This document shows positions 641 through 62,414 of a stretch of 64,000 nucleotides of DNA, one piece after another (positions within the stretch are counted from its first letter, which is position 1; every line of letters begins with the position of its first letter). This DNA is from Minisyncoccota bacterium (GTDB lineage: Bacteria; Patescibacteriota; Minisyncoccia; Phycocordibacterales; UBA9973), in the NCBI GenBank assembly GCA_041657885.1, contig JBBABB010000001.1, forward strand, positions 129,094-193,093, given 5' to 3'. Below the pieces are notes generated by a model. That model searched no databases. It saw only the letters and a list, made by a program, of their open reading frames with translations, and was not told the origin of the DNA. A program made the translations under genes and the position numbers.

Positions 641-744
641 AACTAAATTTAAAAATGGCTCAAAAGCCCCTTCAATAAGACTATTCAGAGATACGCCATG
701 ATAAGACTATTTGGAATTTTTTTCCTGTGGTATAATAAAAAGAC

Positions 745-1311
745 ATGGAAAATTTTAAATTTATACTGTCTTCGATTTTAATTGTAGTTTTATTAGGGTT
801 TGCTGGTTATTGGGCGTTTTCTACTATTGAATCAGGGAGTACTCATGTTGATAGTCAGAAACAAAAAGAACTGGAACAAGAAAATAAAAACCTGACAAAA
901 GAAGTGACTGACCTCAAAAAAGAAATTGGTCTTTTACAAGCCGACAAAGAGCAAGCTCTGGCTGATCAAGTACAGGCAAACCTTGAAGCTGAAGCAATTA
1001 AAATACCAGTTGCTACCACTCTTACTCCAGCAAAACCTACGGTTTCAAAAAATCAAAGTTTAATAAATGAATTACAAAAACTTGTTGATGGTAAAATTTA
1101 CCTTAAATTGAAATCTCAAGGCCCTGCTGTTGGAACAGTTCAAAAGTTTTTAAATATTTATAACAAAACTTCCAACAAAATAGATAATGATTATGGGGCA
1201 AGTACAAAAACTACTGTCTTAAATTTTCAAAAAGCTCAGGGTTTAACAGCAGATGGAGAAACGGGACCTAGTACATATAGTAAAATGATCAGCTGGCTCA
1301 AGAGTCATTAA
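745..1311 (+). CDS. Membrane-anchored coiled-coil protein with C-terminal peptidoglycan-binding (PG_binding_1-like) domain
   Basis: N-terminal TM segment, KE-rich coiled coil, and C-terminal GPAVGTVQKFLN...GLTADGETGPSTY resembling the PG-binding domain. TGGTATAAT lies 8 nt upstream of the ATG. Confidence 0.5.
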   Translation: MENFKFILSSILIVVLLGFAGYWAFSTIESGSTHVDSQKQKELEQENKNLTKEVTDLKKEIGLLQADKEQALADQVQANLEAEAIKIPVATTLTPAKPTVSKNQSLINELQKLVDGKIYLKLKSQGPAVGTVQKFLNIYNKTSNKIDNDYGASTKTTVLNFQKAQGLTADGETGPSTYSKMISWLKSH

Positions 1312-1414
1312 AATTTGACTCAACTTGAATATAGAGATACAATTATAAGAAAGATTTTTTGTCTTTATAGCACTCTTGTTTGTTATAAATTATAAAAAAC
1401 AAGAGGAAAGACAA

Positions 1415-1441
1415 AAAAGGGGTGCGCCCGCACCTTTTAAT
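1415..1441 (+). terminator. Rho-independent terminator hairpin (ggggtgcgcccgcacc), A/T flanked
   Basis: GC-rich stem-loop with A-run before and T-run after, downstream of the 745..1311 gene. Confidence 0.5.
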
Positions 1442-1460
1442 TAGTACAGGGATGATTCTC

Positions 1461-1495
1461 ATAGAGCTTGGCTCCCAACCAAGCTCTATTTTTTG
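1461..1495 (+). terminator. Second tandem terminator hairpin (atagagcttgg-ctcccaa-ccaagctctat + T6)
   Basis: 11-bp perfect stem followed by tttttt. Confidence 0.55.
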
Positions 1496-1525
1496 GTTAT
1501 TTTTTATGATATTATATTTAGTGTA

Positions 1526-3031
1526 ATGAATATAGATAATTTACCCATTTTATTATCATTGTTTCCTTTTCTAGTTTTTCTTTTTTTGTTGTTTGTAAAG
1601 AAAGTACCACTGCTTTGGACTTCTATTATAACGCTCGCTATATACACAATCCTTGCTATTTTCTACTGGCAAATTTTTCCATCATTTTTATACACATCTT
1701 ATGGAAAAGGGTTTTTTGTGGCGCTTGATATATTTATAATTATTTTCGGTGCAGTTTTTTTTCTAGAAATATTAAAAGATTTAAAAATTATAAAACACAT
1801 ATCTTATTATTTGGGAGGACTCTCAAAAGATTACAGAATACAAATAATTATTATTGCGTGGTTTCTTGAATGTTTTATTGAGGGAACAGCAGGTTTTGGC
1901 ACTCCAGCTGCAATCGCTGTGCCTATTTTGATCGGGCTTGGGCTCACCCCGATAAAAGCTTTAGTTGTGGGTCTTTTAGGGAATAGTGTTCCCGGTGTTT
2001 TCGGAGCAGCAGGAACACCGATAAAAATGGGATTTGTTGGATTAAATACGGCGCTAGTTCCTCTATATTCAGCACTTCTCAATCTTGTTGGTTTTATTAT
2101 TCCTATTTTTATGCTTTGGATTATTACAGCTGGTAGGCCAAATAGAAAAAAGGAGTTTTTAAGCGCACTACCGTTTGCTATATTTTCTGGTTTAATCTTT
2201 GTGGTGCCATCACTTGTATTTGTTTCTTTGGGGCAAGAATTCCCATCAATTTTAGGTTCTTTATTTGGTTTGATTGTAATTGTAATTTCAGTAAAGTTTG
2301 GATTCTTAGTTCCAAAAGAACAATTATCTCTTGTGGAAAATAAAGAAGAAGAGAAATCTTTTATGTCACCATTTAAATCTTTCTTGCCTTACATTATTCT
2401 TATCATATTATTGATTTTGGGTAAAATTGTTTTAGGAAAATTGGGACTACCATTATCTTTGGGTTTCAATCATACTTTTAGTTTATTTAATCCCGGTTTT
2501 ATTTTTATAATTACTGGCTTGTTGGTTGTTCTAATTTGGAGAGAAAAGTGGAGATTTATTTATAGCTCAATAAAGAGAGCGTCTAAGGGGGCAGTTCGTC
2601 CGTTTTTTGTTGTTTTTTCAATGCTTGCAATGGTTCAAATAATGATAAATTCTGGAAATAATTATTCAGGATTACTTTCTGCAATTAGTCTCATGACCAA
2701 GAGTTTTGAGACGACACTACTTCCTTTCTTTGCTCCGTTCATTGGAGCTTTTGGTGCCTTTATGACTGGGAGTGTGACTGTTTCAAATATTATGTTTGGT
2801 CACTTATTTAGTATGGCTTCTACAAATCTTTCTATGAATACTAGTCTAATATTATCTCTTGGAGTAGTTGGAGCTGCTGCGGGTAATATGATAGCGTTAG
2901 CGGATATATTGACAGCTGAGGCAGTGACAGGAGTGAAAAACGGAGAAATACACGTGCTAAAGGGAGTTATCGTTCCTTGTATTACTTATCTTTTCCTTCT
3001 TGGGGTTATAGGATTTATAATTTTAGGATGA
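1526..3031 (+). CDS. L-lactate permease family (LctP-like) membrane transporter
   Basis: Polytopic membrane protein. GTAGFGTPAAIAVPILIGLG and GNSVPGVFGAAGTPIKMG motifs are typical of the LctP family. ATG at 1526 chosen over the upstream TTG. Confidence 0.55.
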   Translation: MNIDNLPILLSLFPFLVFLFLLFVKKVPLLWTSIITLAIYTILAIFYWQIFPSFLYTSYGKGFFVALDIFIIIFGAVFFLEILKDLKIIKHISYYLGGLSKDYRIQIIIIAWFLECFIEGTAGFGTPAAIAVPILIGLGLTPIKALVVGLLGNSVPGVFGAAGTPIKMGFVGLNTALVPLYSALLNLVGFIIPIFMLWIITAGRPNRKKEFLSALPFAIFSGLIFVVPSLVFVSLGQEFPSILGSLFGLIVIVISVKFGFLVPKEQLSLVENKEEEKSFMSPFKSFLPYIILIILLILGKIVLGKLGLPLSLGFNHTFSLFNPGFIFIITGLLVVLIWREKWRFIYSSIKRASKGAVRPFFVVFSMLAMVQIMINSGNNYSGLLSAISLMTKSFETTLLPFFAPFIGAFGAFMTGSVTVSNIMFGHLFSMASTNLSMNTSLILSLGVVGAAAGNMIALADILTAEAVTGVKNGEIHVLKGVIVPCITYLFLLGVIGFIILG

Positions 3032-3037
3032 TATAAT
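3029..3037 (+). promoter_or_regulatory. Extended -10 box TGATATAAT 8 nt upstream of ATG 3046 (leaderless-type promoter)
   Basis: Sequence motif; one of at least 15 such instances in the window. Confidence 0.45.
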
Positions 3038-3045
3038 AGAATTAT

Positions 3046-3432
3046 ATGAGAAAAATACTTAAGGCAATTCATAAAGTACTTGATGAGATAGAAGACAAAA
3101 CTAGAATTAAATTGGTTCATCATCCAATAATTTATGCTTTTATTGGTAGCGTTGGAATTGTTTCAATCTGGCGAGGAATTTGGCATATTTCAGATGATTG
3201 GGGAGTTTCTAGCTGGGGGTCTTTGATTTTTGGTTTAATAGTTACTGTTTTAACGGGACTTTTTGTCTCATTTTTTATTGGAGAAAATATTATTATTTCT
3301 GGACTTAATAAAGAAAAAAGACTTGATGAGAAAACAGAAGAAGAAATACATAAGGAAAGGACTACATTGACTGATATACAAAAAGATATAAAAGAAATTA
3401 AGGAAATTCTTTCAGAAAATAAAAAACAATAA
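3046..3432 (+). CDS. Hypothetical small membrane protein with C-terminal coiled coil
   Basis: ORF with two hydrophobic helices and a charged KE-rich tail. Confidence 0.35.
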   Translation: MRKILKAIHKVLDEIEDKTRIKLVHHPIIYAFIGSVGIVSIWRGIWHISDDWGVSSWGSLIFGLIVTVLTGLFVSFFIGENIIISGLNKEKRLDEKTEEEIHKERTTLTDIQKDIKEIKEILSENKKQ

Positions 3433-4329: not shown

Positions 4330-4338
4330 TGCTATAAT
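4330..4338 (+). promoter_or_regulatory. Extended -10 box TGCTATAAT 6 nt upstream of ATG 4345; divergent partner -10 (4313..4318, minus strand) 6 nt upstream of the histidine kinase ATG
   Basis: Two back-to-back -10 boxes in a 38-bp divergent intergenic region. Confidence 0.45.
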
Positions 4339-4344
4339 CTAGGT

Positions 4345-4572
4345 ATGTATATTAAGGTAAAAGTACAAGCTAATGCAAAAAAAGAAAATATAGAGAAAAA
4401 AAGTTCAGATTCTTATTTTATTTCAGTTAAAGAGAAAGCCGAAAGAAATTTGGCCAATAAGAGAATTTGTCAGATTGTGGCATCTTTGTTTGGTGTATCG
4501 ATAAAAAGTGTTAGAATTGTAAATGGACACCAAAGTCCAAATAAAATATTATCAATTAATTTAGTCTTTTGA
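4345..4572 (+). CDS. DUF167/YggU-family small protein
   Basis: 75-aa protein with the YggU-like pattern (..VKV.A.AKKNEI.......I.V.A.A..G.AN..L...LA..L.V....V.I..G..S..K...I). Confidence 0.5.
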   Translation: MYIKVKVQANAKKENIEKKSSDSYFISVKEKAERNLANKRICQIVASLFGVSIKSVRIVNGHQSPNKILSINLVF

Positions 4573-10515: not shown

Positions 10516-10544
10516 GGGAATTTAACTTGTAGTATAATAAAAAT

Positions 10545-11249
10545 ATGAGCATAAGAAAACAACCTTTAGTAACAGGGGAAATGTATCATATTTACAATCG
10601 CGGGGTAGACAAGCGAGATATTTTTTCAGATAAAAATGACATTTATCGTTTTATTGAAAGTATTAAAGAATTTAATAGAATAGAAAAAATAGACAGTCTT
10701 GCAAATCTAAGAAAAATAAAATCAAATTCTCAGATAGGGGCTAAGCCCCTATCTGAAGGACCGTTAGTAGAGATTATAGGATATTGCCTTAATCCTAACC
10801 ACTTTCATTTTATATTAAGACAGTCAAATGATAATGGAATCACTAAATTTATGCATAAACTTCTAGGGGGATATACATCTTATTTTAATATTAAAAATTC
10901 TAGATCAGGGTCTCTATTTCAAGGAACTTTTAAATCACAAACTATAACTAATGAAGATTATTTTAATAAGTTAATAGGTTATGTTAACAAAAACTATCAA
11001 ATTCACAGTATTCCAGAAAATAAAAATGATTTAGTTTTTTCGGGGGATTATGAATATGAAAATAATAAATTCAATATTATTTCTAAAAAAGAAGGGGAAA
11101 ATATTTTAGAGGTTTTTGGAGGTGTAAAAAAATTTAAAAAACATTGTGATGAAATAGTTTCTATTGTTAGAGAGGAAAGAGGTAAAAAATCTTTACTTGA
11201 AGATGAAGATTTGAATGTAATTATAGAAAGTCTCCCAGATAGGGGCTAA
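10545..11249 (+). CDS. REP-associated tyrosine transposase (RAYT; IS200-like HuH-Y1 transposase, COG1943 family)
   Basis: MYHIYNRGVDKRDIF...NPNHFHFIL (HuH) ...GGYTSYFN...SGSLFQGTFKS...YVNKNYQ matches the Y1_Tnp/RayT pattern. Flanked by REP palindromes. TATAAT 6 nt upstream of the ATG. Confidence 0.8.
   Translation: MSIRKQPLVTGEMYHIYNRGVDKRDIFSDKNDIYRFIESIKEFNRIEKIDSLANLRKIKSNSQIGAKPLSEGPLVEIIGYCLNPNHFHFILRQSNDNGITKFMHKLLGGYTSYFNIKNSRSGSLFQGTFKSQTITNEDYFNKLIGYVNKNYQIHSIPENKNDLVFSGDYEYENNKFNIISKKEGENILEVFGGVKKFKKHCDEIVSIVREERGKKSLLEDEDLNVIIESLPDRG
10731..10755. repeat. REP palindrome copy 2, in frame inside the RAYT ORF (encodes QIGAKPLSE)
   Basis: Same 25-mer (one central base differs), codon-aligned. 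Confidence 0.8.
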
Positions 11250-11310: not shown

Positions 11311-11319
11311 TGATATAAT
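11311..11319 (+). promoter_or_regulatory. Extended -10 TGATATAAT 6 nt upstream of ATG 11326
   Basis: Motif. Confidence 0.45.
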
Positions 11320-11325
11320 AGTAGT

Positions 11326-11952
11326 ATGATTATCACATATTTAGGCAAGCAATTCTTCAAAATCGGACAGGGAAGTTTGACGGTGGCTTTTAATCCTATA
11401 AGTAAGGATTCTAAATTCTCTTCTTTGGCTTCTCATTTTGGCTCTGATATTGCCCTTTCAACTGTAAATCACCCTGATTATAATGGCTTTGACAATGTGT
11501 CTCATGGAGATACTATTCCTTTTGAAATTAATGGCCCTGGGGATTATGAAATTAAAGATATTTTTATAAAAGGAGTCATGACTGAAACAACGCTCTCTGG
11601 CAAAAAATATATCAATACCATTTATTCTCTTTCAATTGAAAATATTTCTTTGTGTTTTCTGGGGGCGATAATGGATGAAAAATTAAGCTCAGCTGTTCTT
11701 GGCCAAATAGGAACTCCTGATATATTATTTATACCAATTGGTAATAATGAATTACTTAGCCCAATAGAAGCATACAAACTCGCTGTGACTCTTGAACCAA
11801 AGATTATTATTCCAATGGATTATGACGAAAAGACATTGAAAGCATTTCTTAAAGAAGCCGGACAAGAAAAAGTAGTACCAATTGAGAAGCTTACAATAAA
11901 AGCAAAAGAATTAGCAAGTCGTGAAGGTGAGATTGTCGTATTATCATCATAA
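11326..11952 (+). CDS. MBL-fold (UPF0173-like) metal-dependent hydrolase homolog with degenerate His motif
   Basis: MIITYLGKQFFKI... and ...IIPMDYDE resemble the UPF0173 family, but the HxHxDH motif is replaced (STVNHPDYNG). Confidence 0.35.
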   Translation: MIITYLGKQFFKIGQGSLTVAFNPISKDSKFSSLASHFGSDIALSTVNHPDYNGFDNVSHGDTIPFEINGPGDYEIKDIFIKGVMTETTLSGKKYINTIYSLSIENISLCFLGAIMDEKLSSAVLGQIGTPDILFIPIGNNELLSPIEAYKLAVTLEPKIIIPMDYDEKTLKAFLKEAGQEKVVPIEKLTIKAKELASREGEIVVLSS

Positions 11953-16012: not shown

Positions 16013-16021
16013 TGATATAAT
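16013..16021 (+). promoter_or_regulatory. Extended -10 TGATATAAT 6 nt upstream of ATG 16028
   Basis: Motif. Confidence 0.45.
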
Positions 16022-16027
16022 ATATAT

Positions 16028-16555
16028 ATGTTTACTAATCCAGAACAAAATATTTTACATTTAGGACTTACAGAAGGAATGCGTGTAGCAGACTTTGGCG
16101 CAGGGACGGGTTTTTATTCTAAGGCGGCAAGCGCAAAAGTAGGATATACAGGTAAAGTTTATGCCATAGAAGTACAAAAAGATTTAGTGAAAAGGCTTGA
16201 GAGTGAAATAAAAAGTTGGGGTATCTTAAATATAGATTGTATCTGGGGTGATATAGAAAAGAGAAATGGTACAAAAATTTCTGACCAAAGTGTGGATGTA
16301 GTTATTGTGTCCAATGTCTTATTTCAAGCTGAAGACAAGCTTGGGCTTATAGATGAAGCTAAACGTGTTTTAAAGAAAGGCGGTAAGGTTCTTTTGATAG
16401 ATTGGAGTGATTCGTTTGGAGGTATGGGGCCTACAACGGAGAGTGTTGTGACGGAAAGTATGGCAAAAGAATTATTTGAGAAAAGAGGATTTAAATTAGA
16501 AGAAAGTATTTCCACAAGTGCCCATCATTATGGTATAATTTTCAAGTATGAGTAA
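16028..16555 (+). CDS. Class I SAM-dependent methyltransferase
   Basis: VADFGAGTGFYS (motif I), DVVIVSNVL, GGKVLLIDW. Confidence 0.75.
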   Translation: MFTNPEQNILHLGLTEGMRVADFGAGTGFYSKAASAKVGYTGKVYAIEVQKDLVKRLESEIKSWGILNIDCIWGDIEKRNGTKISDQSVDVVIVSNVLFQAEDKLGLIDEAKRVLKKGGKVLLIDWSDSFGGMGPTTESVVTESMAKELFEKRGFKLEESISTSAHHYGIIFKYE

Positions 16556-18915: not shown

Positions 18916-18923
18916 TATATTAT

Positions 18924-19753: not shown

Positions 19754-19785
19754 TAATACGTTAGAATTTCTCAATATTAAAATAT

Positions 19786-20595: not shown

Positions 20596-21821
20596 GATTT
20601 ACCTCCTTTCATTATTGATGAAATCAAATCTCCTAATCCGGCAAAATTGCCGAGTGAGCCATCATAAATGAATCCTTTACCATCCTTAATCATTTTCCAC
20701 TTCATGATAAAGTTCAAACATTCTCCTATTGAGATATCAGGTTTGGATACTTCAAGAGCTTCCTTTAGTTTTATAGCCTTTTTAATATCTGTTTCTACCT
20801 CATAGGTTTCAGATTTCCGCTCATTTTCTTCTCTCTGGAAAGCAATGTCTGCTTTGTAAATTTCATTATTTGGGTCTGGGCTAACATCCCCAATCGTTAA
20901 TCTTTGGAGATAAGCTCCGGTTTTAATGATCTTGATTTTGACATTTCCTCGCTGGAGATTTTCAAGAAGAGAAATTCTTACCCTGATTTTTTCTTTCAGA
21001 ACATTGACATTGATATCTAACTCCTTAATTTTCTCTGAAAGTCTTTTCCACTTCGAGTCCATTTCTTTATCCCATTCTTTATCCCATTCTTCACCATCTC
21101 CCCATTGCTTTCTAACAATGGCATTAGGTGGATCTTTTTTCCGATACCAATCTAATAAAATAGGAGTAGGAATATCTTCGTTAATCAATTTTAGATAATC
21201 AAAACCCTCATCAATATTTTTACCTTCTGGATTATTAGGATCTTGACATAAGGCTTTGACTAGAAAATCAATTGTCTGCAACTTAGCTGTTATCATCTCT
21301 TGCCAAGTTGTCGGACCTTCCTCTTTGTGTCTTGAGTATTCACGCAATCTTCCTTCTAAAATGTTTGCGATATGTGCATCAACACCTTTATCTTCTCCGA
21401 TGTTGATATACTCTTCACATGTTTCATCATCAATATTCCAAGCCAGAGAAATGGGAATTTTTATGTCCACATTGTCAGGCGTTAAAATTTGTTGAGGATT
21501 AAGCTCTCTCTGTCTCCGTTCTTTGGAGATAAGAAGAATATCGTAGACTATTCCTTTTAGAAAGACCCAATTAAGTCCCTCTCCTAAAATTACTGCCTTC
21601 TTATCTGTTGTCCAGATTTTTTTACCCAATCTAGTCATAAGACCAATATGGGGAGGCTTGTTAGTGATAGTTACAATTCCCTGAATAATTAATCCACCTG
21701 ATAAACAGGTAGTTAATAAAAGCATAATACTTATATGCGGAATTCCCGCAAATAAGACTATAGTACTGAGAGCAAAGATAGCTATCGATACTATTAATGG
21801 AGTTTTGTCGTCTTTTTTCAT
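20592..21821 (-). CDS. SPFH/band-7 (flotillin/HflK-like) domain membrane protein with coiled-coil tail
   Basis: Two N-terminal TM helices; ILGEGLNWVF...QQILTPDNVDIKIPISLAWNI fits the SPFH core (..G...V...G......PG......P.......R.Q....TKDNV.V.V.AVV.Y.V); long charged coiled coil. Confidence 0.45.
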   Translation of the reverse strand: MKKDDKTPLIVSIAIFALSTIVLFAGIPHISIMLLLTTCLSGGLIIQGIVTITNKPPHIGLMTRLGKKIWTTDKKAVILGEGLNWVFLKGIVYDILLISKERRQRELNPQQILTPDNVDIKIPISLAWNIDDETCEEYINIGEDKGVDAHIANILEGRLREYSRHKEEGPTTWQEMITAKLQTIDFLVKALCQDPNNPEGKNIDEGFDYLKLINEDIPTPILLDWYRKKDPPNAIVRKQWGDGEEWDKEWDKEMDSKWKRLSEKIKELDINVNVLKEKIRVRISLLENLQRGNVKIKIIKTGAYLQRLTIGDVSPDPNNEIYKADIAFQREENERKSETYEVETDIKKAIKLKEALEVSKPDISIGECLNFIMKWKMIKDGKGFIYDGSLGNFAGLGDLISSIMKGGKS

Positions 21822-21942
21822 GATATTTAGTTTTTAATGAATATTTTATTTTGCTTAGATTATATCATTATTATATATAAAAGTCAAGGGGGCTAAAAAT
21901 TAGTTCAACAAGTAAGTGCAACACTTTCACTAAACAATAAAA

Positions 21943-23447: not shown

Positions 23448-23456
23448 TGATATAAT
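23448..23456 (+). promoter_or_regulatory. Extended -10 TGTGATATAAT 6 nt upstream of gpmI ATG
   Basis: Motif. Confidence 0.5.
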
Positions 23457-23462
23457 ATCTAA

Positions 23463-24974
23463 ATGATCAAAAAACAAATTGCTTTAATTGTGCTTGATGG
23501 CTGGGGATACAGAGAGGATAAAAAAGATAATGCCATAGCGCAGGCGCACAAGCCTATATTTGATAATATTTGGAATACATGCCCGCACACTACACTTAAA
23601 GCTTCTGGATTAGCCGTTGGACTACCTGATAGACAAATGGGTAATAGTGAAGTTGGACATATGACAATAGGTGCCGGTAGAATTTTGGACCAAGATTTAG
23701 TAAGAATAAATAAAGCTATCTTATCTGGTGAATTTAAAAATAGTCCTGCTCTTCACACTTTGTTTGAGCATGTTGTGAAAAATAATTCTACTCTTCATGT
23801 GGCAGGGCTCGTGTCTCCGGGTGGAGTACATAGCCACATGTCGCATCTATTTGCATTTTTGGAAAATGCGAAAGATTATGGGATTAAAAAAATTGCGATT
23901 CATATTTTTACCGATGGGCGTGACACACCATCTCAAGCAGGAGCCGGATATATTAAACAGCTTGAAGATGTTATTGAGAGACTAGGTGTAGGCGAGATTG
24001 CTTCCGTCTCTGGGCGATTATATGCGATGGATAGGGATAAACGTTGGGAGCGTCTTTCTAAAGCAGAACAAGTAATATTTGAAGGAAAAGGAAATATTTG
24101 TGATATAAAACCATCTGTTTATTTAGAAAATTTATATAACACGTCCATTAAGTCGGATGAATACCTAGAGCCGTTTGTTTGTCAAAATAAAGAAGGTGGC
24201 ACCTATACTTTAAATAAAAATGATGGATTCTTTTTATTTAATTTTCGAGCCGACCGTATGAGAATGCTTACAGAAAAAATAGTAAAAAAATCAAAAGAGG
24301 ATAATATTTGTTTAGTGACAATGACAAATTATGGTAAAGAATATAAAAGTTTAATTGTTTTTCCTCCGGTAAAAATAGAAATAACTCTTGGAAAAATAAT
24401 TAGTGAAAATGGTATGACTCAAGTTCATATTGCCGAGACAGAGAAATTTGCTCATGCGACTTATTTCCTAAATTGTGGAGAAGAAACTCCATATAAAGGG
24501 GAAGAACAAATTCTTATTCAAAGTCCAAAAGGGGTATTTACTTATGATTTAGCTCCAAAGATGTCAGCCGAATTAGTTGCGGATGAAGCAATAAAACAAA
24601 TAAAAAAAGGGACAGATTTTGTATTTATAAATTTTGCGAATGCAGATATGGTTGGACATACTGCCAATGTTCCTGCGATAATAACTGCAATAGAAGAAGT
24701 AGACAAACAACTTGGACGAGTACTTGAAGAGCTTCACTCTAATAATGGTATTGCCTGTGTTACGGCTGATCATGGAAATGCTGAAATTAATATTGACCCT
24801 ATTACAGGATTAAAACATACTTCTCATACTACTGATCCCGTACCATTTATAATGACAGATAGTAGTAAGGAGTTAAAAGAAAAAGGGGGTTTAATAGATG
24901 TAGCCCCTACCGTTTTAGACTTATTTGACATAAAAAAACCAGAAGAAATGACCGGAGAAAGTTTAATTATGTAA
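23463..24974 (+). CDS. gpmI: 2,3-bisphosphoglycerate-independent phosphoglycerate mutase
   Basis: LIVLDGWGYRE...GLPDRQMGNSEVGHMTIGAGRI... Confidence 0.95.
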   Translation: MIKKQIALIVLDGWGYREDKKDNAIAQAHKPIFDNIWNTCPHTTLKASGLAVGLPDRQMGNSEVGHMTIGAGRILDQDLVRINKAILSGEFKNSPALHTLFEHVVKNNSTLHVAGLVSPGGVHSHMSHLFAFLENAKDYGIKKIAIHIFTDGRDTPSQAGAGYIKQLEDVIERLGVGEIASVSGRLYAMDRDKRWERLSKAEQVIFEGKGNICDIKPSVYLENLYNTSIKSDEYLEPFVCQNKEGGTYTLNKNDGFFLFNFRADRMRMLTEKIVKKSKEDNICLVTMTNYGKEYKSLIVFPPVKIEITLGKIISENGMTQVHIAETEKFAHATYFLNCGEETPYKGEEQILIQSPKGVFTYDLAPKMSAELVADEAIKQIKKGTDFVFINFANADMVGHTANVPAIITAIEEVDKQLGRVLEELHSNNGIACVTADHGNAEINIDPITGLKHTSHTTDPVPFIMTDSSKELKEKGGLIDVAPTVLDLFDIKKPEEMTGESLIM

Positions 24975-30088: not shown

Positions 30089-30340
30089 TTATTTGTGCCC
30101 TCTCTTTTTGAGAATCTTAGTTACTTTACCTAATTTTATAAGTTTTTCTTGATTTTTCTGACGAATTAATCTCTTCAAAGTAGCTCTCTTAATCTTAACT
30201 TTAGATTCAGTTCTTTCATTATATCGCTTACTTTTGACTTTTTGAATAATACCTGACTCTTGTACTTTGCGAGTAAACCGGCGGATAAGATTCATATTGC
30301 TTTCATTTGCATTTTTCTTTACTTCTATAACTGTAATCAT
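30089..30340 (-). CDS. rpsU: 30S ribosomal protein S21
   Basis: MITVIEVKKNANESNMNLIRRFTRKVQESGII... resembles S21 (MPVIKVRENEP..ALRRFKR). TGATAATAT 7 nt upstream of the ATG (minus strand). Confidence 0.65.
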   Translation of the reverse strand: MITVIEVKKNANESNMNLIRRFTRKVQESGIIQKVKSKRYNERTESKVKIKRATLKRLIRQKNQEKLIKLGKVTKILKKRGHK

Positions 30341-30428
30341 GGTTGTTATATTATCATATACTTATAAAAAAGACAAACAAAAAGCCCAGACATACGTCCG
30401 GGCTTGTTCGTTATTCGAAGAGCAATGC

Positions 30429-33671: not shown

Positions 33672-33759
33672 ATTTATATCGTACCATATAGATATAAAAT
33701 AAACACAATTTCTGAATTGATAATTTTATGCTATAATCACTTTGTTTCTATACATAATT

Positions 33760-34773
33760 ATGTCTATATTTTTTAAAAAACTAGGGATAGATCTAGGCAC
33801 GGCGAATACGCTGGTATACCTTCCAAACAAAGGGATTGTTTTAAACGAGCCTTCTGTTGTTGCAGTATCAGAGCAAGATAACACTATTCTAGCAATCGGG
33901 ATTGAGGCGAAAGACATGATAGGTAAAACACCTGAGAATATTATTGTGTATCGTCCTATGAAAGATGGTGTTATCGCTGATTACAGAGTGACAGAAGCAA
34001 TGCTTCGATATTTTATTACTAAAACTCTCGGCAAATATAATTTATTTAAACCAGATGTGATGGTTTCTGTTCCAGCCGGAATTACTTCAACAGAACGTCG
34101 GGCAGTTGTTGAGGCAGCAATTAGAGCTGGAGCAAAAAATGCATACGTTGTGAAAGAGCCGATACTAGCAGCTATTGGTGCAGGTATTCCTATTCAAGAA
34201 TCAAAAGGTTATATGATTATGGATATAGGAGGAGGAACGACTGATATAGCGGTTATTGCTCTTGGAGGAATAGTGGCATCAACTTCTGTAAAATGTGCAG
34301 GGGACAAGATAGACCAAGCTATTACTGATTATATTAAGAAAACTTTTAATCTTGCGATTGGAGATAAAACTGCGGAAGCTATTAAAATAAAAATAGGGGC
34401 AGCAGTCCCACTTGAAGAAGAATTAACTATTACGATTAAGGGACGCGATTATATCCAAGGTCTTCCTCGTACAGCACAAATCTCTACCAATGAAATAGTC
34501 AGAGCTATAGATAAAGAGTTACGCACTATGATTGGGGCCGTTAAAGATGTTTTGGCCCTTACTCCACCGGAATTAGCAGCAGATATTATAGATGATGGAA
34601 TAATTATGACTGGTGGGTCAGCACTGCTTCGAAACATGGCTGATTTGGTTTATCGTCGCACGGGGGTAAAAGCTCGTGTTGCCGATGAACCTCTTTTATG
34701 TGTTGCAAAAGGAACAGGAGAAGCACTCAATCATTTAGATACTTACAAGAAAAGTATTTTAAGCAAAAAATAA
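33760..34773 (+). CDS. mreB: Rod shape-determining protein MreB
   Basis: FKKLGIDLGTANTLVY...NEPSVVA. ATG at 33760 chosen over the upstream TTG. Confidence 0.9.
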   Translation: MSIFFKKLGIDLGTANTLVYLPNKGIVLNEPSVVAVSEQDNTILAIGIEAKDMIGKTPENIIVYRPMKDGVIADYRVTEAMLRYFITKTLGKYNLFKPDVMVSVPAGITSTERRAVVEAAIRAGAKNAYVVKEPILAAIGAGIPIQESKGYMIMDIGGGTTDIAVIALGGIVASTSVKCAGDKIDQAITDYIKKTFNLAIGDKTAEAIKIKIGAAVPLEEELTITIKGRDYIQGLPRTAQISTNEIVRAIDKELRTMIGAVKDVLALTPPELAADIIDDGIIMTGGSALLRNMADLVYRRTGVKARVADEPLLCVAKGTGEALNHLDTYKKSILSKK

Positions 34774-40398: not shown

Positions 40399-40517
40399 GT
40401 AGATATGGTATAATATGTCATATGCAGAGAGGTGTAATTGCAAATATTATTATAGTAATAATTGGTATTATTTTTATAGCCATATTAATCGGATTTTTTA
40501 ATAAACCATAATATTAT

Positions 40518-44083: not shown

Positions 44084-44104
44084 ATTTTTTGGTATAATAT
44101 ACAT

Positions 44105-44587
44105 ATGGAAAATTTTTTAAGCATAACAACAATAGATATTATAATTCGTCTTTTTGTCGCTTTGTTTTTGGGTATGATTATTGGGACTGAACGTGTCTGG
44201 GCACATAAGACAGCAGGAATGCGGACATATGCACTTGTCGCTATGGGCTCAGCTTTGTTTGTAATTATTTCAAACGAAATGGTCAAGTATTATACAGGAT
44301 TTAGTGGACTAAACCCCCTAATGATTGTTTCTCAAATAGTCGTTGGTGTGGGTTTTATTGGAGCCGGTCTTATTTTTTCCAAAGATTCAAAATTAATGGG
44401 TCTCACAACGGCTACTGGTTTGTGGGTTTCGGCAGGGATTGGTATGGCTGCTGGTTTTAGACTTTTTAATATTGCAATAATTGCAACAGTTCTTACTTTA
44501 TTTATCTTTATAATTTTGTGGTTTGTGGAAGAACAACTTAAAAAATCAAAATTTTTTAAAGAGAATAATGTACAGGATGTAAATTAA
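44105..44587 (+). CDS. MgtC/SapB family membrane protein
   Basis: DIIIRLFVALFLGMIIGTERVWAHKTAGMRTYALVAMGSALF. TGGTATAAT 6 nt upstream. Confidence 0.75.
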   Translation: MENFLSITTIDIIIRLFVALFLGMIIGTERVWAHKTAGMRTYALVAMGSALFVIISNEMVKYYTGFSGLNPLMIVSQIVVGVGFIGAGLIFSKDSKLMGLTTATGLWVSAGIGMAAGFRLFNIAIIATVLTLFIFIILWFVEEQLKKSKFFKENNVQDVN

Positions 44588-46414: not shown

Positions 46415-46510
46415 TTTTCCACAAATTATTGAGCTTTTTTATTAATCCTGTAGTATAACCCCGTAGCAGAATTTTGTAAAAATTTCACTACAGGGTATAA
46501 TATAAGTACT

Positions 46511-47698
46511 ATGGGATTTTTATTTGGAAAAGAAAAAAAGGAACACATTGTTGCAATTTTTGATATAGGGTCAGGAAGTGTTGGCGGGGCTATTGTACGT
46601 ATACCTACAGATGATAAGGGGGTGCCTGCGATATTAAAATCTGTCCGTAATGACATAAAATTTCATAAAGATAAAGATTTTAATTTTAATTTATTTATGA
46701 AAGATATGATTTTAGCACTTGGTGGAGCAGCTAATGCTTTATATCAAAAAAAAGCTGGCGCGCCAGATGAAATATTTTGTGTACTTGCATCGCCATGGTA
46801 TTTATCTGAAACTAGAATTATAAAAATGAAGAGAAAAAAACCTTTTATTTTTACAAAACATTTGGCAACTGAATTAATTCAAAAAGAAATATCTGGCCTT
46901 ACAGAATCTTATAAGGATAAATATGGTAGCTTAAATACTTCTCCTGAATTGATAGAGCAACACACTATGGCTGTGTCACTCAATGGATATGCAATTGAAG
47001 ACCCACTAGGCAAGAAATGTGATTTTCTTGAAATGAATATGGTGATGTCTTTGGTCCCTAAATTATGTTTAGATGAAATACGCGAAACCCTATCAAAAAC
47101 ATTTCACCACACAAGTGTCAGTTTCTCTTCTTTTACAGTGGCTACTTATTTGGCAGTGAGAGATAGATATGTAATTCCAGATTCATATCTATTGCTTGAT
47201 ATCAGTGGAGAGATAACAGATGTTGGTATTGTTACAAAAGGAGTTTTAAAATCAGTACTATCATTTCCTTTTGGAAAGAAAACTTTTTTCAATTATATGT
47301 GCACTAAACTAGAAATTGAGTTACGCGATGCGCAGGAAATTTTTAAACTTTATAGTGAAGGTAATCTTTCTTCTGAATTTAAGAAAAAAGTAATTCCTCT
47401 TTTTGAATCAATTGAAAATTCTTGGGGTGAAGCTTTCAGACAATGTATAATCACTCTTCCTCGAACACTTATTCTTCCTAGCACCATATTTTTAACTGCA
47501 GATAATGATATAAAAAATTGGTTTGCTGATGTTTTAAAAAACCAAGAATATATTCAATCTATGGTTTCTGGTAACAAGTGCACTGTGGTAACTCTAAATG
47601 GACCTGAGTTTTTAAATATGTGTAATATTGAGGAGGGCGCATGTGATCCATTTTTAATGATAGAAGCCATAGCGATAATGAGAAAAATGGGTAAATAA
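46511..47698 (+). CDS. Hypothetical actin-like ATPase-fold protein (PilM/FtsA-like N-terminus)
   Basis: IVAIFDIGSGSVGGAIVRI resembles ASKHA-fold phosphate-1 motif. GGGTATAAT 9 nt upstream. Confidence 0.3.
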   Translation: MGFLFGKEKKEHIVAIFDIGSGSVGGAIVRIPTDDKGVPAILKSVRNDIKFHKDKDFNFNLFMKDMILALGGAANALYQKKAGAPDEIFCVLASPWYLSETRIIKMKRKKPFIFTKHLATELIQKEISGLTESYKDKYGSLNTSPELIEQHTMAVSLNGYAIEDPLGKKCDFLEMNMVMSLVPKLCLDEIRETLSKTFHHTSVSFSSFTVATYLAVRDRYVIPDSYLLLDISGEITDVGIVTKGVLKSVLSFPFGKKTFFNYMCTKLEIELRDAQEIFKLYSEGNLSSEFKKKVIPLFESIENSWGEAFRQCIITLPRTLILPSTIFLTADNDIKNWFADVLKNQEYIQSMVSGNKCTVVTLNGPEFLNMCNIEEGACDPFLMIEAIAIMRKMGK

Positions 47699-54461: not shown

Positions 54462-55007
54462 TTATTTACACGATGAGAGAAATTCTTTTTTGGTGGCTTC
54501 GTCAATTTTATCCGTTACAATAATCATCATTTCTGATGTGAGGTTTAAATCTTTTTTAATATTTATAAAAAGATGCTCATATGGATATATTGAAACCCAA
54601 ACAGAATTTTTTATACAAATAAATCCAGCTTTTTTAAGAAGATATCGAAGAGCTTCGCGTTCGCTTTTTCTTTCTTCAGGAAGGTCAAGAATGATTATTC
54701 TCCAATAGCCGTCCCAATTATTAGAAACAAGAGCTGTATCATCATCTAAAGCATTATTATTAAGACGCTTTTTACCCTCTTCTGATAGTCGGAAATATGG
54801 TTGGTAGTCCGACTGGAAACACTCTACAAGCCCGTCTGACGCTAGATTCTTTATAGAACGGGATATTGCATATTCTGGCCTATTTTTGCTTGTATAGACG
54901 CCTTTTATTGTATTTTCAACCTCTTTTTTAAGAGAATCGAAAGAAACTGCCTTTTTTCTGGCTAGGGTTTTGAAAATTGCCTTCTGGATTGATGATTTTT
55001 TCTCCAT
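54462..55007 (-). CDS. PaaX-like winged-helix regulator paralog, antisense between grpE and dnaK
   Basis: WDGYWRIIILDLPEERKSEREALRYLLKKAGFICIKNSVWVSIYP (PaaX_C pattern). Start at MEKKS (55007), with TGATATAAT 7 nt upstream on the minus strand. Confidence 0.5.
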   Translation of the reverse strand: MEKKSSIQKAIFKTLARKKAVSFDSLKKEVENTIKGVYTSKNRPEYAISRSIKNLASDGLVECFQSDYQPYFRLSEEGKKRLNNNALDDDTALVSNNWDGYWRIIILDLPEERKSEREALRYLLKKAGFICIKNSVWVSIYPYEHLFINIKKDLNLTSEMMIIVTDKIDEATKKEFLSSCK

Positions 55008-55219
55008 GTTGACAATTATATCACTATAATATATATTACACAATAATTTCGTGGTCACGAAATACTTGTCAAAAATAAAAGATGAGTATATAATTGGTTT
55101 AGATTCTCCTCTTGAGGAGTACCCGTAGGGGGAGGTGGAGTATTCAAATGCATCCACCCCGGCTTTCAGCCACCCCTCAAGAGGGGAATTAATACAAAAT
55201 TATTAATAATTAAAAATAG

Positions 55220-59889: not shown

Positions 59890-59895
59890 TAGAAT

Positions 59896-59972: not shown

Positions 59973-59998
59973 AGAATTAAAGCGAAACAAATTATTTT

Positions 59999-61015
59999 AT
60001 GAATACAAATTTAAACACATTAGAATTTATTCTAAAAAATTATAAGAACTTCAATGCTCGCGCAACGAAAGACGCGATGATTTCATATTGGCGTCATATT
60101 GAAAAAGGAGGCAAAATGTTTTGGGCTATGGGAGGAGCCATGTCTTCAGCTCAGCTTGGGATTACTCTTGCTCCAGCAATCAGGAATGGATTAATTTCAG
60201 GAATGTCTGTGACTGGGGCTAACCTTGAGGAGTCATTGTTCCGTCTCGTTGCCCACAAGAGCTACAAAGACTTTCCTGATTATAGATATTTTACAAAAGA
60301 AGATGATACAAAGATTTTAGAAGACCGTATGCGACGTGTGACAGATACAAGTATTCCTGAAGACGAAGCATTTCGTGTTGTTGAAAAACAAATTGTTCCT
60401 ACATGGAAAAAAGCTACAGTAGATGGGACAAGAAAATTTTGGCATGAATACTTTTATGAACTTATCCAATCAATTGATAAGAGTAAACACGAAGGAAGAG
60501 CAGATGAATGTTGGTTGCTTGCTGCAGCAGAGAAAAATATTCCAATAGTGGTACCTGGTTATGAGGACTCAACATTTGGAAATATTTTTGCTTCTTATGT
60601 AAAGACCGGTGAATGTAGTGCAAATATTGCTAAATCGGGTGTTGAATACATGGTGGCATGGTACGATCAGTATCAAGATTTGTCTAAGGATAAAGGAGTT
60701 GGACTTTTTCAAATTGGTGGAGGAATTGCGGGTGATTTTCCAATTTGTGTTGTTCCTTCTATAAAATATGATTTAAAAAAAGAAGTAAAACCATGGGCTT
60801 ATTTCTGCCAGATTTCAGATTCTACAACTTCTTATGGTTCATATTCCGGAGCAACCCCAAATGAAAAAATTACTTGGGATAAGCTTACGAAAGACACTCC
60901 GATGTTCGTCATTGAATCAGATGCTACTATTGTTGCCCCACTTATACTTACGGCACTTCTTGAGTGTAAAGCAAATCCAGGTGGAGCTAATAAATTAATA
61001 GAACAAATGGGTTAG
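59999..61015 (+). CDS. Deoxyhypusine synthase-like protein (possible homospermidine synthase)
   Basis: FWAMGGAMSSAQLG...GMSVTGANLEESLF resembles the DHS family. Confidence 0.55.
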   Translation: MNTNLNTLEFILKNYKNFNARATKDAMISYWRHIEKGGKMFWAMGGAMSSAQLGITLAPAIRNGLISGMSVTGANLEESLFRLVAHKSYKDFPDYRYFTKEDDTKILEDRMRRVTDTSIPEDEAFRVVEKQIVPTWKKATVDGTRKFWHEYFYELIQSIDKSKHEGRADECWLLAAAEKNIPIVVPGYEDSTFGNIFASYVKTGECSANIAKSGVEYMVAWYDQYQDLSKDKGVGLFQIGGGIAGDFPICVVPSIKYDLKKEVKPWAYFCQISDSTTSYGSYSGATPNEKITWDKLTKDTPMFVIESDATIVAPLILTALLECKANPGGANKLIEQMG

Positions 61016-61020
61016 GTTTG

Positions 61021-61115
61021 AAATAGCTTTTCTCAGAGGGTACACCAATTTCTTGGTAGAAATTCGTTCAGTGTTCGCTCCGTCGAGCTCACAAGCCCCT
61101 CTGATAAAACTATTT
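61021..61115. repeat. MITE-like repeat family A, copy 4
   Basis: aaatagcttttctcagagggtac...gctccgtcgagctcacaagcccctctgataaaactattt. Confidence 0.7.
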
Positions 61116-61135
61116 CAGACCTAACCCTCAATACT

Positions 61136-62200
61136 ATGAAAGGTAATAAAGAAAAAAAGAAAATATTAGAAGAAAAAATTTCAAAGTTTAATCCCAGTGA
61201 TAGTGGAGCTCTTCATCATGGAATTTTTGGATTACCATTTAACCCTGAAGAATCAAGGGTTATTTTGGTTCCGGTGCCATGGGAATCCACAGCAACTTAT
61301 GGCGTTGGAACCGCCTTGGGACCAAAAGCAATTTTAGATGCATCGCAGCAAATTGATCTATATGACCCGATAAATCCCGATGGTTGGAAAGAGGGAATTG
61401 CTATGCAAGATATTCCTTCTAGTATTTTCTATAAAAATCAACAAGTTAGAGAAAAAATTTTAAAATATTTTGAAAAATATATTGAAAAAGATATAGATAA
61501 AGGATTACAAGATGAAATAAATGTAAGTTGTCTTGAGCTTAATGATTATGTTAAAGAAACCACCAGAAAATTTTTGGAAGATGATAAAATTGTCGGATTA
61601 GTTGGAGGGGACCACAGTGTAATTCTTGGATATCTGAAGGCGTTATCTAAAAAGTATAAAGATTTTGGAGTACTTCATATTGATGCCCATTGTGACTTAA
61701 GAAATGCTTATCTTGGACTTGAATATTCTCATGCCTCAATATTTTTTAATGCTTTAAAGATAAAAAATATTTCTAAATTAGTCCAAGTGGGAATTCGAGA
61801 TTTTAGTCATGCAGAAAATGATTTTATAAAGAAAGAAAAAAATAGAATATCTCTGTTCACAGATTATGAAATCAAAAAAGCAGTATTTTCAGGAGTAACT
61901 TTGAAAAAAAAGTTTGATGAAATTATTAAAAAACTTCCTAAGAATGTCTATATTTCTTTTGATGTTGATGGGTTAATGCCATATCTAAGCCCAAACACTG
62001 GCACGCCTGTCGTTGGTGGATTTACAATAGAAGAAATGGTTTTCCTATTTGAGGAAATGATAGCTTCAGGTAGAAAAATTATCGGTTTTGATTTGTGTGA
62101 AGTTGCTCCAGGAAAAGATGGCCAGTGGGACGGTAACGTCGGGGCAAGAATCTTGTATAAATTGTGTTTATTGACACTCAAAAGCCAAAAAATAAAATAA
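61136..62200 (+). CDS. speB: Agmatinase (ureohydrolase/arginase family)
   Basis: GGDHSVILGYL, LHIDAHCDL, SFDVDGLMP manganese-binding motifs. Confidence 0.75.
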   Translation: MKGNKEKKKILEEKISKFNPSDSGALHHGIFGLPFNPEESRVILVPVPWESTATYGVGTALGPKAILDASQQIDLYDPINPDGWKEGIAMQDIPSSIFYKNQQVREKILKYFEKYIEKDIDKGLQDEINVSCLELNDYVKETTRKFLEDDKIVGLVGGDHSVILGYLKALSKKYKDFGVLHIDAHCDLRNAYLGLEYSHASIFFNALKIKNISKLVQVGIRDFSHAENDFIKKEKNRISLFTDYEIKKAVFSGVTLKKKFDEIIKKLPKNVYISFDVDGLMPYLSPNTGTPVVGGFTIEEMVFLFEEMIASGRKIIGFDLCEVAPGKDGQWDGNVGARILYKLCLLTLKSQKIK

Positions 62201-62213
62201 AAAATTAATTTTG

Positions 62214-62222
62214 TGATATAAT
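62214..62222 (+). promoter_or_regulatory. Extended -10 TGTGATATAAT 6 nt upstream of ATG 62229
   Basis: Motif. Confidence 0.45.
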
Positions 62223-62228
62223 TATCAT

Positions 62229-62414
62229 ATGTCATGGTTTTTTATTGCACTCGGGGCTCCATTTTTATGGGCAATTGTAAATATTGCTGACCAGTATCTT
62301 GTTAAAAAATATGCTATTGGGCACAAAGGTTCAGGTGGGCTTGTGCTTTTTTCTAGTTTGATTGGGATTGTGAAGAAAATGGTTTGGATTTATCAAAAAC
62401 AAGAACATGTATAA
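62229..62414 (+). pseudogene. Truncated N-terminal fragment of an EamA/DMT-like transporter (61 aa)
   Basis: MSWFFIALGAPFLWAIVNIADQYLVKK resembles the first TM of DMT transporters, then terminates. Confidence 0.3.

Follow-up and report, generated by a model that had tools for sequence, protein, structure and literature searches.

Bacterial genes expressed from leaderless mRNAs carry an accepted sequence signature, a -10 box located 6-8 nt from the start codon (PMC6028130, PMC3160421), and this -10-adjacent arrangement has been confirmed by experiment in Deinococcus (PMC12340547). Transcripts whose leader does not exceed 5-8 nt are counted as leaderless-like (PMC10568206). Among the closest described systems are the genomes of GeneMarkS-2 group C (Actinobacteria, Deinococcus-Thermus; Zheng et al. 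2011; PMC6028130, PMC3160421, PMC12340547), in which a -10 box stands 6-8 nt before the ATG of the operon-first gene in about 25-50% of the transcription units. Mycoplasma pneumoniae and other genome-reduced Mollicutes (PMC10568206, PMC5573727) have AT-rich genomes and extended Pribnow (TGN) promoters that lack a clear -35 element; in M. pneumoniae only 8% of the genes have a Shine-Dalgarno (SD) sequence, and 16% of the transcripts are leaderless-like and are translated equally to leadered ones. Bacteroidetes-type genomes (GeneMarkS-2 group B) are SD-less and place a single non-SD, non-promoter motif before all genes. In Parcubacteria, Tsurumaki et al. 2022 (PMC9297842) found the CCTCCT 16S tail in only 48% of genomes and suggested that no SD helices are formed; that study addresses the rRNA side only and mentions neither leaderless mRNAs nor promoter placement.

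Here we describe a window (the whole stretch of DNA that was analysed, 64 kb) from the same superphylum subgroup, in which extended -10 boxes stand at a short, fixed distance from many start codons. Its operon-first genes share with group C the positional signature, the use of ATG, the fraction of transcription units concerned and the proposed mechanism. However, the group C phyla are GC-rich and use a degenerate TAnnnT box, whereas the full TGnTATAAT with little -35 is found here, and their non-leaderless genes use SD sequences, which occur here at chance level. At its putatively leaderless genes the organism behaves as a group C member would, but its genome does not conform to the group C textbook case. 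It resembles M. pneumoniae in its AT-rich, reduced genome and promoter type, but that species belongs to an unrelated phylum and lacks bS1, while the window encodes a 377-aa bS1 homologue; the leaderless fraction estimated here is about twice as large, the Mycoplasma value being experimental and ours deduced from sequence. As in group B, the upstream regions of non-leaderless genes are SD-less, A-rich and G-depleted, although here a promoter box at a fixed distance marks a subset of genes. In contrast to the picture drawn for Parcubacteria, a few well-spaced AGGAGG sites occur. Leaderless expression is a known mode, encountered here in a tiny-genome CPR lineage; we found no literature report of it for the Nomurabacteria/Paceibacteria lineage, and the only CPR transcription start site set found was from Nanosynbacter lyticus, a member of a different class.

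Extended -10 boxes precede start codons in the window

The first-pass annotation had listed 15 start codons, each said to be preceded by TGnTATAAT. All 15 sites are present at those codons with the spacers given (Table 1), whereas the full motif holds for only part of them: ten were counted as exact, namely 745, 3046, 4345, 11326, 16028, 23463, 44105, 62229 and 55007(-) together with 8608, which deviates slightly, while in two others TGn precedes an imperfect hexamer and in three or four it is missing. Four sites were added to the list. The TGn extension is present at 12 window sites, and -35 matches at the TGn sites are mostly 1-4 of 6; they are better, 4-5 of 6, at sites without TGn and at leadered promoters. 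TG at -15/-14 with a weak or dispensable -35 is the pattern of an extended -10 promoter.

Table 1. Boxes adjacent to start codons and comparator sites in the 64 kb window.
Positions	Strand	Motif	Spacer	Start	Gene or product	Remark
728..747	+	TGGTATAAT	N8	ATG 745	PG_binding_1 protein, 188 aa	
1507..1528	+	TGATATTAT	N10	ATG 1526	lactate permease	added
3029..3048	+	TGATATAAT	N8	ATG 3046	128 aa	
4304..4321	-	AGTTATAAT	N6	ATG 4306	histidine kinase	no TGn; divergent from 4345
4330..4347	+	TGCTATAAT	N6	ATG 4345	DUF167/YggU, 75 aa	
8593..8610	+	TGGTATTAT	N6	ATG 8608	peptidyl-tRNA hydrolase (pth)	
10530..10547	+	TAGTATAAT	N6	ATG 10545	Y1/IS200-like transposase	no TGn
11311..11328	+	TGATATAAT	N6	ATG 11326	MBL-fold protein	
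16013..16030	+	TGATATAAT	N6	ATG 16028	methyltransferase	
16531..16550	+	TGGTATAAT	N8	ATG 16548	solute-binding protein	added
23448..23465	+	TGATATAAT	N6	ATG 23463	gpmI	
30338..30356	-	TGATAATAT	N7	ATG 30340	bS21 (rpsU)	
33669..33686	-	TGGTACGAT	N6	ATG 33671	PriA-like, 657 aa	added
40406..40424	+	TGGTATAAT	N7	ATG 40422	29-aa hydrophobic small ORF	added
44090..44107	+	TGGTATAAT	N6	ATG 44105	MgtC	
46493..46513	+	GGGTATAAT	N9	ATG 46511	395 aa	no TGn; -35-like TTGTAA
53718..53738	+	TTGTATACT	N9	ATG 53736	grpE	no proper TGn; -35-like TTTGCA
55005..55023	-	TGATATAAT	N7	ATG 55007	PaaX_M-domain protein	
62214..62231	+	TGATATAAT	N6	ATG 62229	61-aa membrane-like ORF	
21859..21887	-	TGATATAAT, -35 TTGACT at 17 bp	38 nt	ATG 21821		comparator
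33729..33762	+	TGCTATAAT		ATG 33760	mreB	comparator; leader ~16 nt
20602..20607	-	AGGAGG	6 nt	ATG 20595		sole convincing SD in window

The window has a GC content of 34%, and TGNTATAAT occurs in it 19 times, as compared to 5.7 +/- 2.4 in dinucleotide shuffles. TGNTATAAT-N6-ATG is found 6 times against 0.10 expected, and TGNTATAAT-N6-9-ATG 11 times, whereas 300 shuffles gave 0.41 +/- 0.59 and never more than 3. An ATG follows 11 of the 19 boxes at N6-8, where about 0.4-0.9 would be expected (binomial p = 1e-10, with 0.0155 as the per-position frequency of ATG). Taken alone, loose TAnnnT matches give a noisy signal in such DNA: roughly 1 in 8 genes would have one at N6-9 by chance. The weakest members (53736, 46511, 22403 and 27029) allow no individual call; 53736, 22403 and 27029 are individually unreliable because they are non-TGn and imperfect and because loose TAnnnT arises by chance at this GC content, and grpE is the weakest case among the listed sites.

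The divergent boxes of 4306 and 4345 lie within 38 bp, as had been described earlier, the box of ATG 40422 directly follows a terminator hairpin (40364-40397), and the MBL-fold gene is the first of a gyrA-containing operon. The promoter of ATG 3046 sits within the final bases of the preceding gene, and that of ATG 16548 is internal, within the 3' end of the methyltransferase gene.

Box and spacing are conserved in related genomes

GyrA assigns the window to Candidatus Nomurabacteria/Paceibacterota (Parcubacteria, CPR), and the comparison set comprised 1.46 Mb from 80 related species. The leaderless proposal of the first-pass annotation was to fall if boxes were not enriched at N6-N9 over other offsets, and this enrichment was found: an ATG lies at N6-N8 after 177 of 370 TGNTATAAT boxes with a sharp N6 peak, the counts at N6/N7/N8 being 112/32/33 as compared to about 5 elsewhere. 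The 80 loci are orthologous neighbourhoods, so that these raw counts are phylogenetically non-independent, with 78 of 402 families contributing; being anchored on the motif, they are independent of gene calls. Before ORFs of at least 90 aa, 141 boxes lie at N5-9 and another 121 precede longer, unpeaked leaders. In an unbiased positional 6-mer scan upstream of operon-first ORFs, TATAAT at N6 ranks first (76 observed against 2.6 expected, z = 38.7), followed by TG[A/C/T]TAT k-mers, and SD k-mers are absent. A logo of 179 N6 sites has T at -15 (0.91) and G at -14 (0.88) before TATAAT, and the region near -35 shows no more than a weak run of T.

Among orthologous promoters the box and N6 spacing are kept while the spacer letters drift. 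The MBL-fold family retains TGnTATAAT at N6-8 in 58/74 members with free spacer sequence, and the methyltransferase (51/74), Pth (30/46) and two other families (12/14, 10/15) are likewise mostly leaderless-like, whereas others almost never are (0/67, 1/44, 0/38). The arrangement also occurs in 10/14 homologues of the Y1/IS200-like transposase, whose N-termini align, and in 19/71 orthologues of the solute-binding protein, mostly at N8; the lactate permease orthologues have N6 spacing in 3/5. It is found at 229 of 742 operon-first genes (~31%) as compared to 70 of 625 internal genes (~11%; p = 4e-19). Leaderless translation strongly favours a 5'-terminal AUG, and the codon at N6 that opens ORFs of at least 80 aa is ATG in 102 cases, GTG in 1 and TTG in 0, a near-exclusivity of uncertain weight that depends on the GTG/TTG baseline of the clade. 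The frequent T at -1 was dropped as a Y-1/R+1 start-site signal because non-leaderless genes have it just as often (62%).

Proposed transcription start and alternative explanations

We consider it highly probable that these elements are promoters of the extended -10 type (TGnTATAAT) that mostly lack a usable -35 and from which transcription would start at the A of the ATG or 1-3 nt from it, yielding leaderless mRNAs. The canonical +1 lies 7 nt after the -10 hexamer. With a sigma-70-type hexamer at -12..-7, a 6-nt spacer would make the A of the ATG +1, and RNA polymerase would produce an mRNA that begins 5'-AUG. Such an mRNA would leave no space for a ribosome-binding site, so that its recognition would have to rely on the 5'-terminal AUG and follow a 70S or an IF2/fMet-tRNA-dependent leaderless pathway; the transcription start and this ribosomal pathway are what we infer. 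Leaderless placement would be the standard expression mode of roughly one third of the transcription units in the clade, and the internal cistrons 3046, 16548 and 44105 would each be served by a separate leaderless promoter lying within the end of the upstream gene. This proposal, already made in the first-pass annotation, is supported by every computational test that was able to refute it.

Two alternatives accept the boxes as promoters and dispute where transcription starts relative to the coding sequence. If the start were fixed 6-7 nt after the hexamer, only the N6 class would begin exactly at AUG, and N7-N10 spacers would give 5' UTRs of 1-4 nt. N7 and N8 are indeed common beside N6 in the related genomes, and the window has N8 at 745, 3046 and 16548, N9 at 46511 and 53736, and N10 at 1526. 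However, the start site can be chosen within a range of about 6-9 nt, and leaders of up to 5-8 nt count as leaderless-like (PMC10568206) and are too short for any ribosome-binding site. Strictly short-leadered transcripts are unlikely as a general account, and this reading is a refinement of the main explanation rather than a competitor: N8-N10 transcripts may carry a 1-4 nt leader, expected to be about 3-4 nt for lactate permease and predicted to be 0-3 nt at ATG 46511. Alternatively, the start codons could be mis-assigned, so that ordinary promoters precede ordinary leaders of genes that start downstream. Assignment was mechanical and several proteins lack a Pfam match (3046, 46511 and 62229), but Pfam profiles align from residues 2-6 of the MBL-fold protein, DUF167/YggU (residues 2-71 against profile 3-75), Pth (3-195 against 1-183), GpmI (4-492 against 1-252) and others, and independent gene calls agree with the starts (ATG 745 was called identically on JGI/ENA/Logan contigs). 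N-termini fall within 2 aa of each other in 65/74, 67/74 and 40/46 orthologues, the ATG is the exact point from which variation follows a codon-like third-position pattern, and the motif-anchored analysis needs no gene calls, all of which makes mis-assignment very improbable. At the mreB comparator, Pfam favours ATG 33760 over TTG 33742.

The remaining alternatives deny that the box acts as an adjacent promoter. It could be a translation signal within the mRNA (an AU-rich enhancer, a bS1 site or a Bacteroidetes-like non-SD ribosome-binding site) in longer 5' UTRs transcribed from upstream promoters, as befits a genome without SD sequences that has generally A-rich upstream regions, a bS1 homologue and the box at 11% of internal cistrons. 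Yet a conserved TG at -15/-14 together with an exact sigma-70 hexamer characterises promoters and not ribosome-binding sites, operon-first genes have the box three times as often as internal ones, and several sites, such as the 38-bp divergent pair, leave no room for an upstream promoter. Non-leaderless genes have a different, box-free A-rich context, and at other genes the same box lies at variable long distances; the leadered gene at 21867(-) has it with a TTGACT -35, which identifies the box as a promoter element rather than a ribosome-binding site. We regard a translation signal as improbable, only marginally less so than mis-assigned starts. A chance by-product of AT-rich intergenic DNA, with matches picked by eye, might be suspected at 34% GC, where the loose TAnnnT histogram is noisy, but it is already refuted by the window shuffles, the sharp N6 peak in the 80 other genomes and the agreeing k-mer scan, and we give it almost no credence.

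Shine-Dalgarno sequences are at chance level

The first-pass annotation was right that most genes lack a recognisable SD sequence. SD 5-mers occupy the -18..-5 region at 2.8% as compared to 3.1% in control windows, so that there is no SD enrichment upstream of starts, and a well-placed SD is found at 1 of 70 window genes; homologues of that gene, 20595(-), also have SD-like sequences (loci L029, L039 and L003). The aggagATG of rseP, cited as an exception, cannot be used as an SD because its spacing to the ATG is 0. The remaining genes do not carry SD-type ribosome-binding sites as those of group C do; their upstream regions are A-rich and G-poor, without a -10 box, and often lie a few nucleotides past the preceding stop codon. 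All genes outside the proposed leaderless set would be expressed with neither element, and the 21859..21887(-) comparator shows that leadered mRNAs without SD exist too. A 16S gene was not found in the window or in loci L001-L084.

With confidence slightly short of even, we extend these observations to the whole Nomurabacteria/Paceibacteria clade: initiation may proceed entirely without SD pairing, about half of the recognisable consensus promoters may give 5'-AUG mRNAs, extra leaderless promoters may lie inside operons, tRNA 3' processing may yield near-leaderless 5' ends (in the window, a tRNA-Val gene is followed after 1 nt by ATG 25206), and other cistrons may rely on A-rich, unstructured, stop-proximal contexts. 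If true, this would, together with the reported anti-SD tail loss and reduced ribosomes of Parcubacteria, place the clade first in SD independence among the bacterial lineages described, and make it a natural test case for whether leaderless initiation is ancestral or re-selected in genome reduction.

The window also carries the genes fmt, def, infA and bS21.

Position of the extended -10 box in the window

The window has a GC content of 34% and encodes about 72 proteins and 3 tRNAs. A first-pass annotation had listed 15 starts preceded at a short distance by a TGnTATAAT box, the extended -10 motif, and had read them as leaderless genes. When the window sequence was re-checked, all 15 box-to-ATG sites were present with the spacers it had assigned (N6, N7 and so on denote the nucleotides between the end of the -10 hexamer and the start codon), and the observation is confirmed. 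The full motif is exact in about 10 of them, but the rest have an imperfect hexamer or lack TGn; the table gives several of these, together with sites absent from that list.

Box-to-ATG sites that depart from the full motif or were absent from the first-pass annotation
Start position	Strand	Box	Spacer	Remark
8608 (ATG)	+	TGGTATTAT		TGn kept, hexamer imperfect
30340 (ATG)	-	TGATAATAT		TGn kept, hexamer imperfect
10545	+	-10 hexamer		no TGn extension
4306	-	-10 hexamer		no TGn extension
46511	+	-10 hexamer		no TGn extension
53736	+	-10 hexamer		no TGn extension
16548 (ATG)	+	16531	N8	absent from list
40422 (ATG)	+	40406	N7	absent from list; 29-aa hydrophobic ORF
33671 (ATG)	-	33686	N6	absent from list
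1526 (ATG)	+	1507	N10	absent from list

The exact box string TGNTATAAT occurs 19 times in the window, as compared to 5.7 +/- 2.4 times in dinucleotide-preserving shuffles. It is followed by ATG at N6 in 6 cases (0.10 expected) and at N6-9 in 11 cases (0.41 +/- 0.59 in 300 shuffles, with a maximum of 3), and ATG lies exactly 6-8 nt 3' of 11 of the 19 boxes, where about 0.9 would be expected from ATG frequency (p = 1e-10). A histogram of the loose TAnnnT pattern around mechanically called starts was rejected as too noisy in AT-rich DNA and was replaced by motif-anchored and k-mer scans, with the spacer-range test run on shuffles; because of this noise, the weakest sites are not individually judgeable. 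Contigs from JGI 3300028032, ENA ERZ27249422 and SRR8449812 (JGI, ENA and Logan metagenomes) encode identical proteins, and independent gene calls on them match the starts at 745, 1526, 3046, 4306 and 4345. The divergent genes at 4306 and 4345, singled out in the first-pass annotation, do have start codons just 38 bp apart, which leaves no room for a leader or for promoters further upstream.

Two of the short ORFs merit description. The region 40364-40511 opens with a terminator hairpin (40364-40397). Downstream of it come TGGTATAAT-N7-ATG and a very hydrophobic 29-aa ORF, MQRGVIANIIIVIIGIIFIAILIGFFNKP, that stops 5 nt short of the following gene at 40518. This ORF, which ORF-length filters overlooked, is a candidate gene for a small membrane protein with a leaderless start. 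At 62229-63087, a putatively leaderless 61-aa ORF that resembles a transporter's membrane segment at its N-terminal end is separated by a 140-nt gap from a 176-aa ORF without a Pfam match, and the two may represent a disrupted gene.

Conservation in related species

GyrA (12307-14760) matches 73-94% identical proteins in metagenome-assembled genomes named Candidatus Nomurabacteria, Paceibacterota and Parcubacteria, the near-complete RAAC4_OD1_1 (AWSN01000001) being among them. The window is therefore from a CPR/Patescibacteria bacterium, and its gene content supports this: it has two PaaX_M proteins, a bS1 that is short and has four domains, and T4SS-pilin paralogues in an array. The comparison covered 80 related species, represented by 1.46 Mb around gyrA. 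The first-pass annotation had named as one refutation a motif no more enriched at N6-N9 than elsewhere; the 80 species instead gave a peak at N6-N8, with 112, 32 and 33 of 370 TGNTATAAT boxes followed by ATG at N6, N7 and N8, respectively (p = 1e-129), and about 5 at each other offset up to 40. At N5-9 before ORFs of at least 90 aa there are 141 boxes, and 57 lie within ORFs. Another 121 are in intergenic DNA, where the leaders are longer and cover 4-160 nt evenly, with no second peak. When all 6-mers upstream of operon-first ORFs were scanned by position, TATAAT at N6 led (76 versus 2.6 expected, z = 38.7), followed by the overlapping words TG[A/C/T]TAT, and Shine-Dalgarno (SD) words were absent from the result.

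The trait is uniform over the 80 species, where it involves 22% of the ORFs overall and 31% of those that come first in an operon, and gene families are bimodal for the leaderless-like arrangement. It is found in 58/74 species for the MBL-fold gene heading the gyrA operon, 51/74 for a methyltransferase family, 30/46 for pth, 10/14 for the Y1 transposase, and 12/14 and 10/15 for two more families, as against 0/67, 1/44 and 0/38 in low families. In orthologous promoters neither TGnTATAAT nor its distance of 6 nt changes, whereas the six-base spacer and the sequence upstream drift freely; third-position variation of the coding type begins exactly at the ATG. For 65/74, 67/74 and 40/46 orthologues the aligned N-termini lie no more than 2 residues apart, and Pfam profile alignments begin at residues 2-6.

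A promoter or a signal resembling a ribosome binding site

The box could be read as a promoter or as a ribosome-binding-site-like signal. A logo built from 179 N6 sites displays T-15 (0.91), G-14 (0.88) and TATAAT with only a weak T-run near -35, and it corresponds to the extended -10 element recognized by sigma-70-type factors. In the window, sites with TGn match the -35 consensus at 1-4 of 6 positions, and better -35 boxes occur at leadered promoters and at sites without TGn. The same box is also found at a distance from starts: one copy of the TGnTATAAT type, preceded by TTGACT at 17 bp, has ATG 21821 (-) 38 nt downstream of it, and others precede mreB, frr, bipA and the gene at 19409 by 16-105 nt. 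A TTG at 33742 (N4) was ruled out as a leaderless mreB start, as Pfam favors ATG 33760 and hence a leader of about 16 nt. Across ORFs, the box precedes 229/742 operon-first but 70/625 internal ORFs (p = 4e-19), being three times commoner at the former. A 343-aa protein encoded at 39323-40354 joins an N-terminal Sigma70_r4 domain to a HARE-HTH domain, an unusual transcription-factor architecture in a genome with promoters that seem able to dispense with a -35 box.

At N6, ORFs of at least 80 aa open with ATG in 102 cases, GTG in 1 and TTG in 0, as expected if a 5'-terminal AUG is the recognition element. Most genes indeed lack a recognizable SD, as had been claimed: SD 5-mers occur in 2.8% of -18..-5 intervals versus 3.1% of control intervals. 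The exception proposed earlier, 'aggagATG' at rseP, did not survive, since the motif abuts the ATG with 0 nt spacing and is unable to act as an SD. The one convincing SD in the window is AGGAGG-N6-ATG at 20595 (-). This sole textbook SD belongs to a two-gene SPFH/Band-7 cassette (20592-21887, -), whose homologues in three other species (loci L003, L029 and L039) bear GGAGG-type SDs, a hint either that some members, at least, may retain the anti-SD or that horizontal transfer brought in the cassette. No 16S 3' end, sought as the place to look for the anti-SD, was found in the window or in 84 loci, and the identical-protein contigs are short and without rRNA.

Non-leaderless genes of the window and loci L001-L080 have an upstream context that is A-rich (50-60% A at -2..-8) and G-poor (about 5%), with T at -1 in 62%. 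A T at -1 was considered as a Y-1/R+1 start-site signal and rejected; being equally common in all gene classes, it was not counted as start-site evidence. At internal genes, the top positional 6-mers are AAATAA and AATAAT immediately 5' of the ATG, which reflect stop-codon-proximal restarts.

Proposed initiation and comparison with known systems

The leaderless interpretation is supported by these sequence data. With the hexamer at -12..-7, an N6 spacer would place the A of ATG at +1, and N7-N10 spacers would either lead to the same start, given some flexibility in where transcription begins, or leave a leader of 1-4 nt. An mRNA beginning with AUG would then be translated by the leaderless pathway; the window encodes fmt, def, infA, bS21, bS1 and also a hibernation factor. 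Some internal cistrons (3046, 16548, 44105) may carry their own embedded leaderless promoter, and others may rely on A-rich, stop-proximal contexts.

Leaderless initiation here is no new mechanism. GeneMarkS-2 group C genomes and the 'TA-led' genes described by Zheng et al. are defined by a -10 box that precedes the start by 6-8 nt, and most are known from Actinobacteria and Deinococcus-Thermus (PMC6028130, PMC3160421). Experiments in D. radiodurans have validated this signature (PMC12340547). In contrast to textbook group C, the remaining genes here lack SDs (chance level, with one convincing exception in the window) and the full extended -10 consensus is present. Taken as a whole, the system most resembles that of Mycoplasma pneumoniae. 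There the Pribnow boxes carry the TGN extension and lack a -35, 8% of genes have an SD, and 16% of transcripts are leaderless-like and undergo normal translation (PMC10568206, PMC5573727); those data are experimental, whereas our case is drawn from sequence. Tsurumaki et al. reported the anti-SD motif in only 48% of Parcubacteria and left mRNAs aside (PMC9297842); the present results would form the mRNA-side counterpart to this anti-SD loss and to the ribosome reduction reported in Parcubacteria. Full-text literature searches found no paper making this point about leaderless genes in CPR, Patescibacteria, Parcubacteria, Saccharibacteria or Nomurabacteria, the matches for leaderless and CPR terms concerning YchF, secretion prediction and archaeal Alba.

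The evolutionary debate on leaderless initiation, so far resting on GC-rich phyla, would gain an AT-rich lineage with ultra-small genomes. Start codons in CPR metagenome-assembled genomes are called mostly with SD-trained models. A promoter-at-N6 rule, combined with the A-rich, T(-1) context, would improve these calls and expose small ORFs like that of the 29-aa peptide at 40422, and for heterologous expression a 5'-terminal AUG would be required and engineering of the ribosome binding site unneeded.

Other features of the window

In the interval 25131-25208, the tRNA-Val gene ends at 25203/25204, beside the ATG of an NTP-transferase gene at 25206, so that tRNA 3' processing would leave a near-leaderless mRNA, reminiscent of mitochondrial tRNA punctuation. 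The pair recurs with a 7-nt gap in related locus L018. Tried as a general second leaderless route, tRNA-adjacent ORFs gave just 2 cases among 141 tRNAs and remain anecdotal.

The palindrome TAGGGGCT(T/A)AGCCCCTA has three copies (10495, 10735 and 11240, within 10495-11256; 6 strand-matches versus 0.11 expected) that flank and fall inside the Y1/IS200-like transposase gene at 10545-11249, a REP/RAYT-like or IS200/IS605-like arrangement. Immediately downstream of a solute-binding protein gene, 17858-20109 encodes five tandem paralogues of 107-158 aa, each matching Pfam T4SS_pilin, which may be part of a CPR type IV secretion or pilus system. Lastly, PLP-dependent arginine/ornithine decarboxylase, deoxyhypusine-synthase-family and agmatinase/arginase-family proteins are encoded at 58501-62200, a polyamine pathway, possibly of the homospermidine type, amid an otherwise sparse metabolism.
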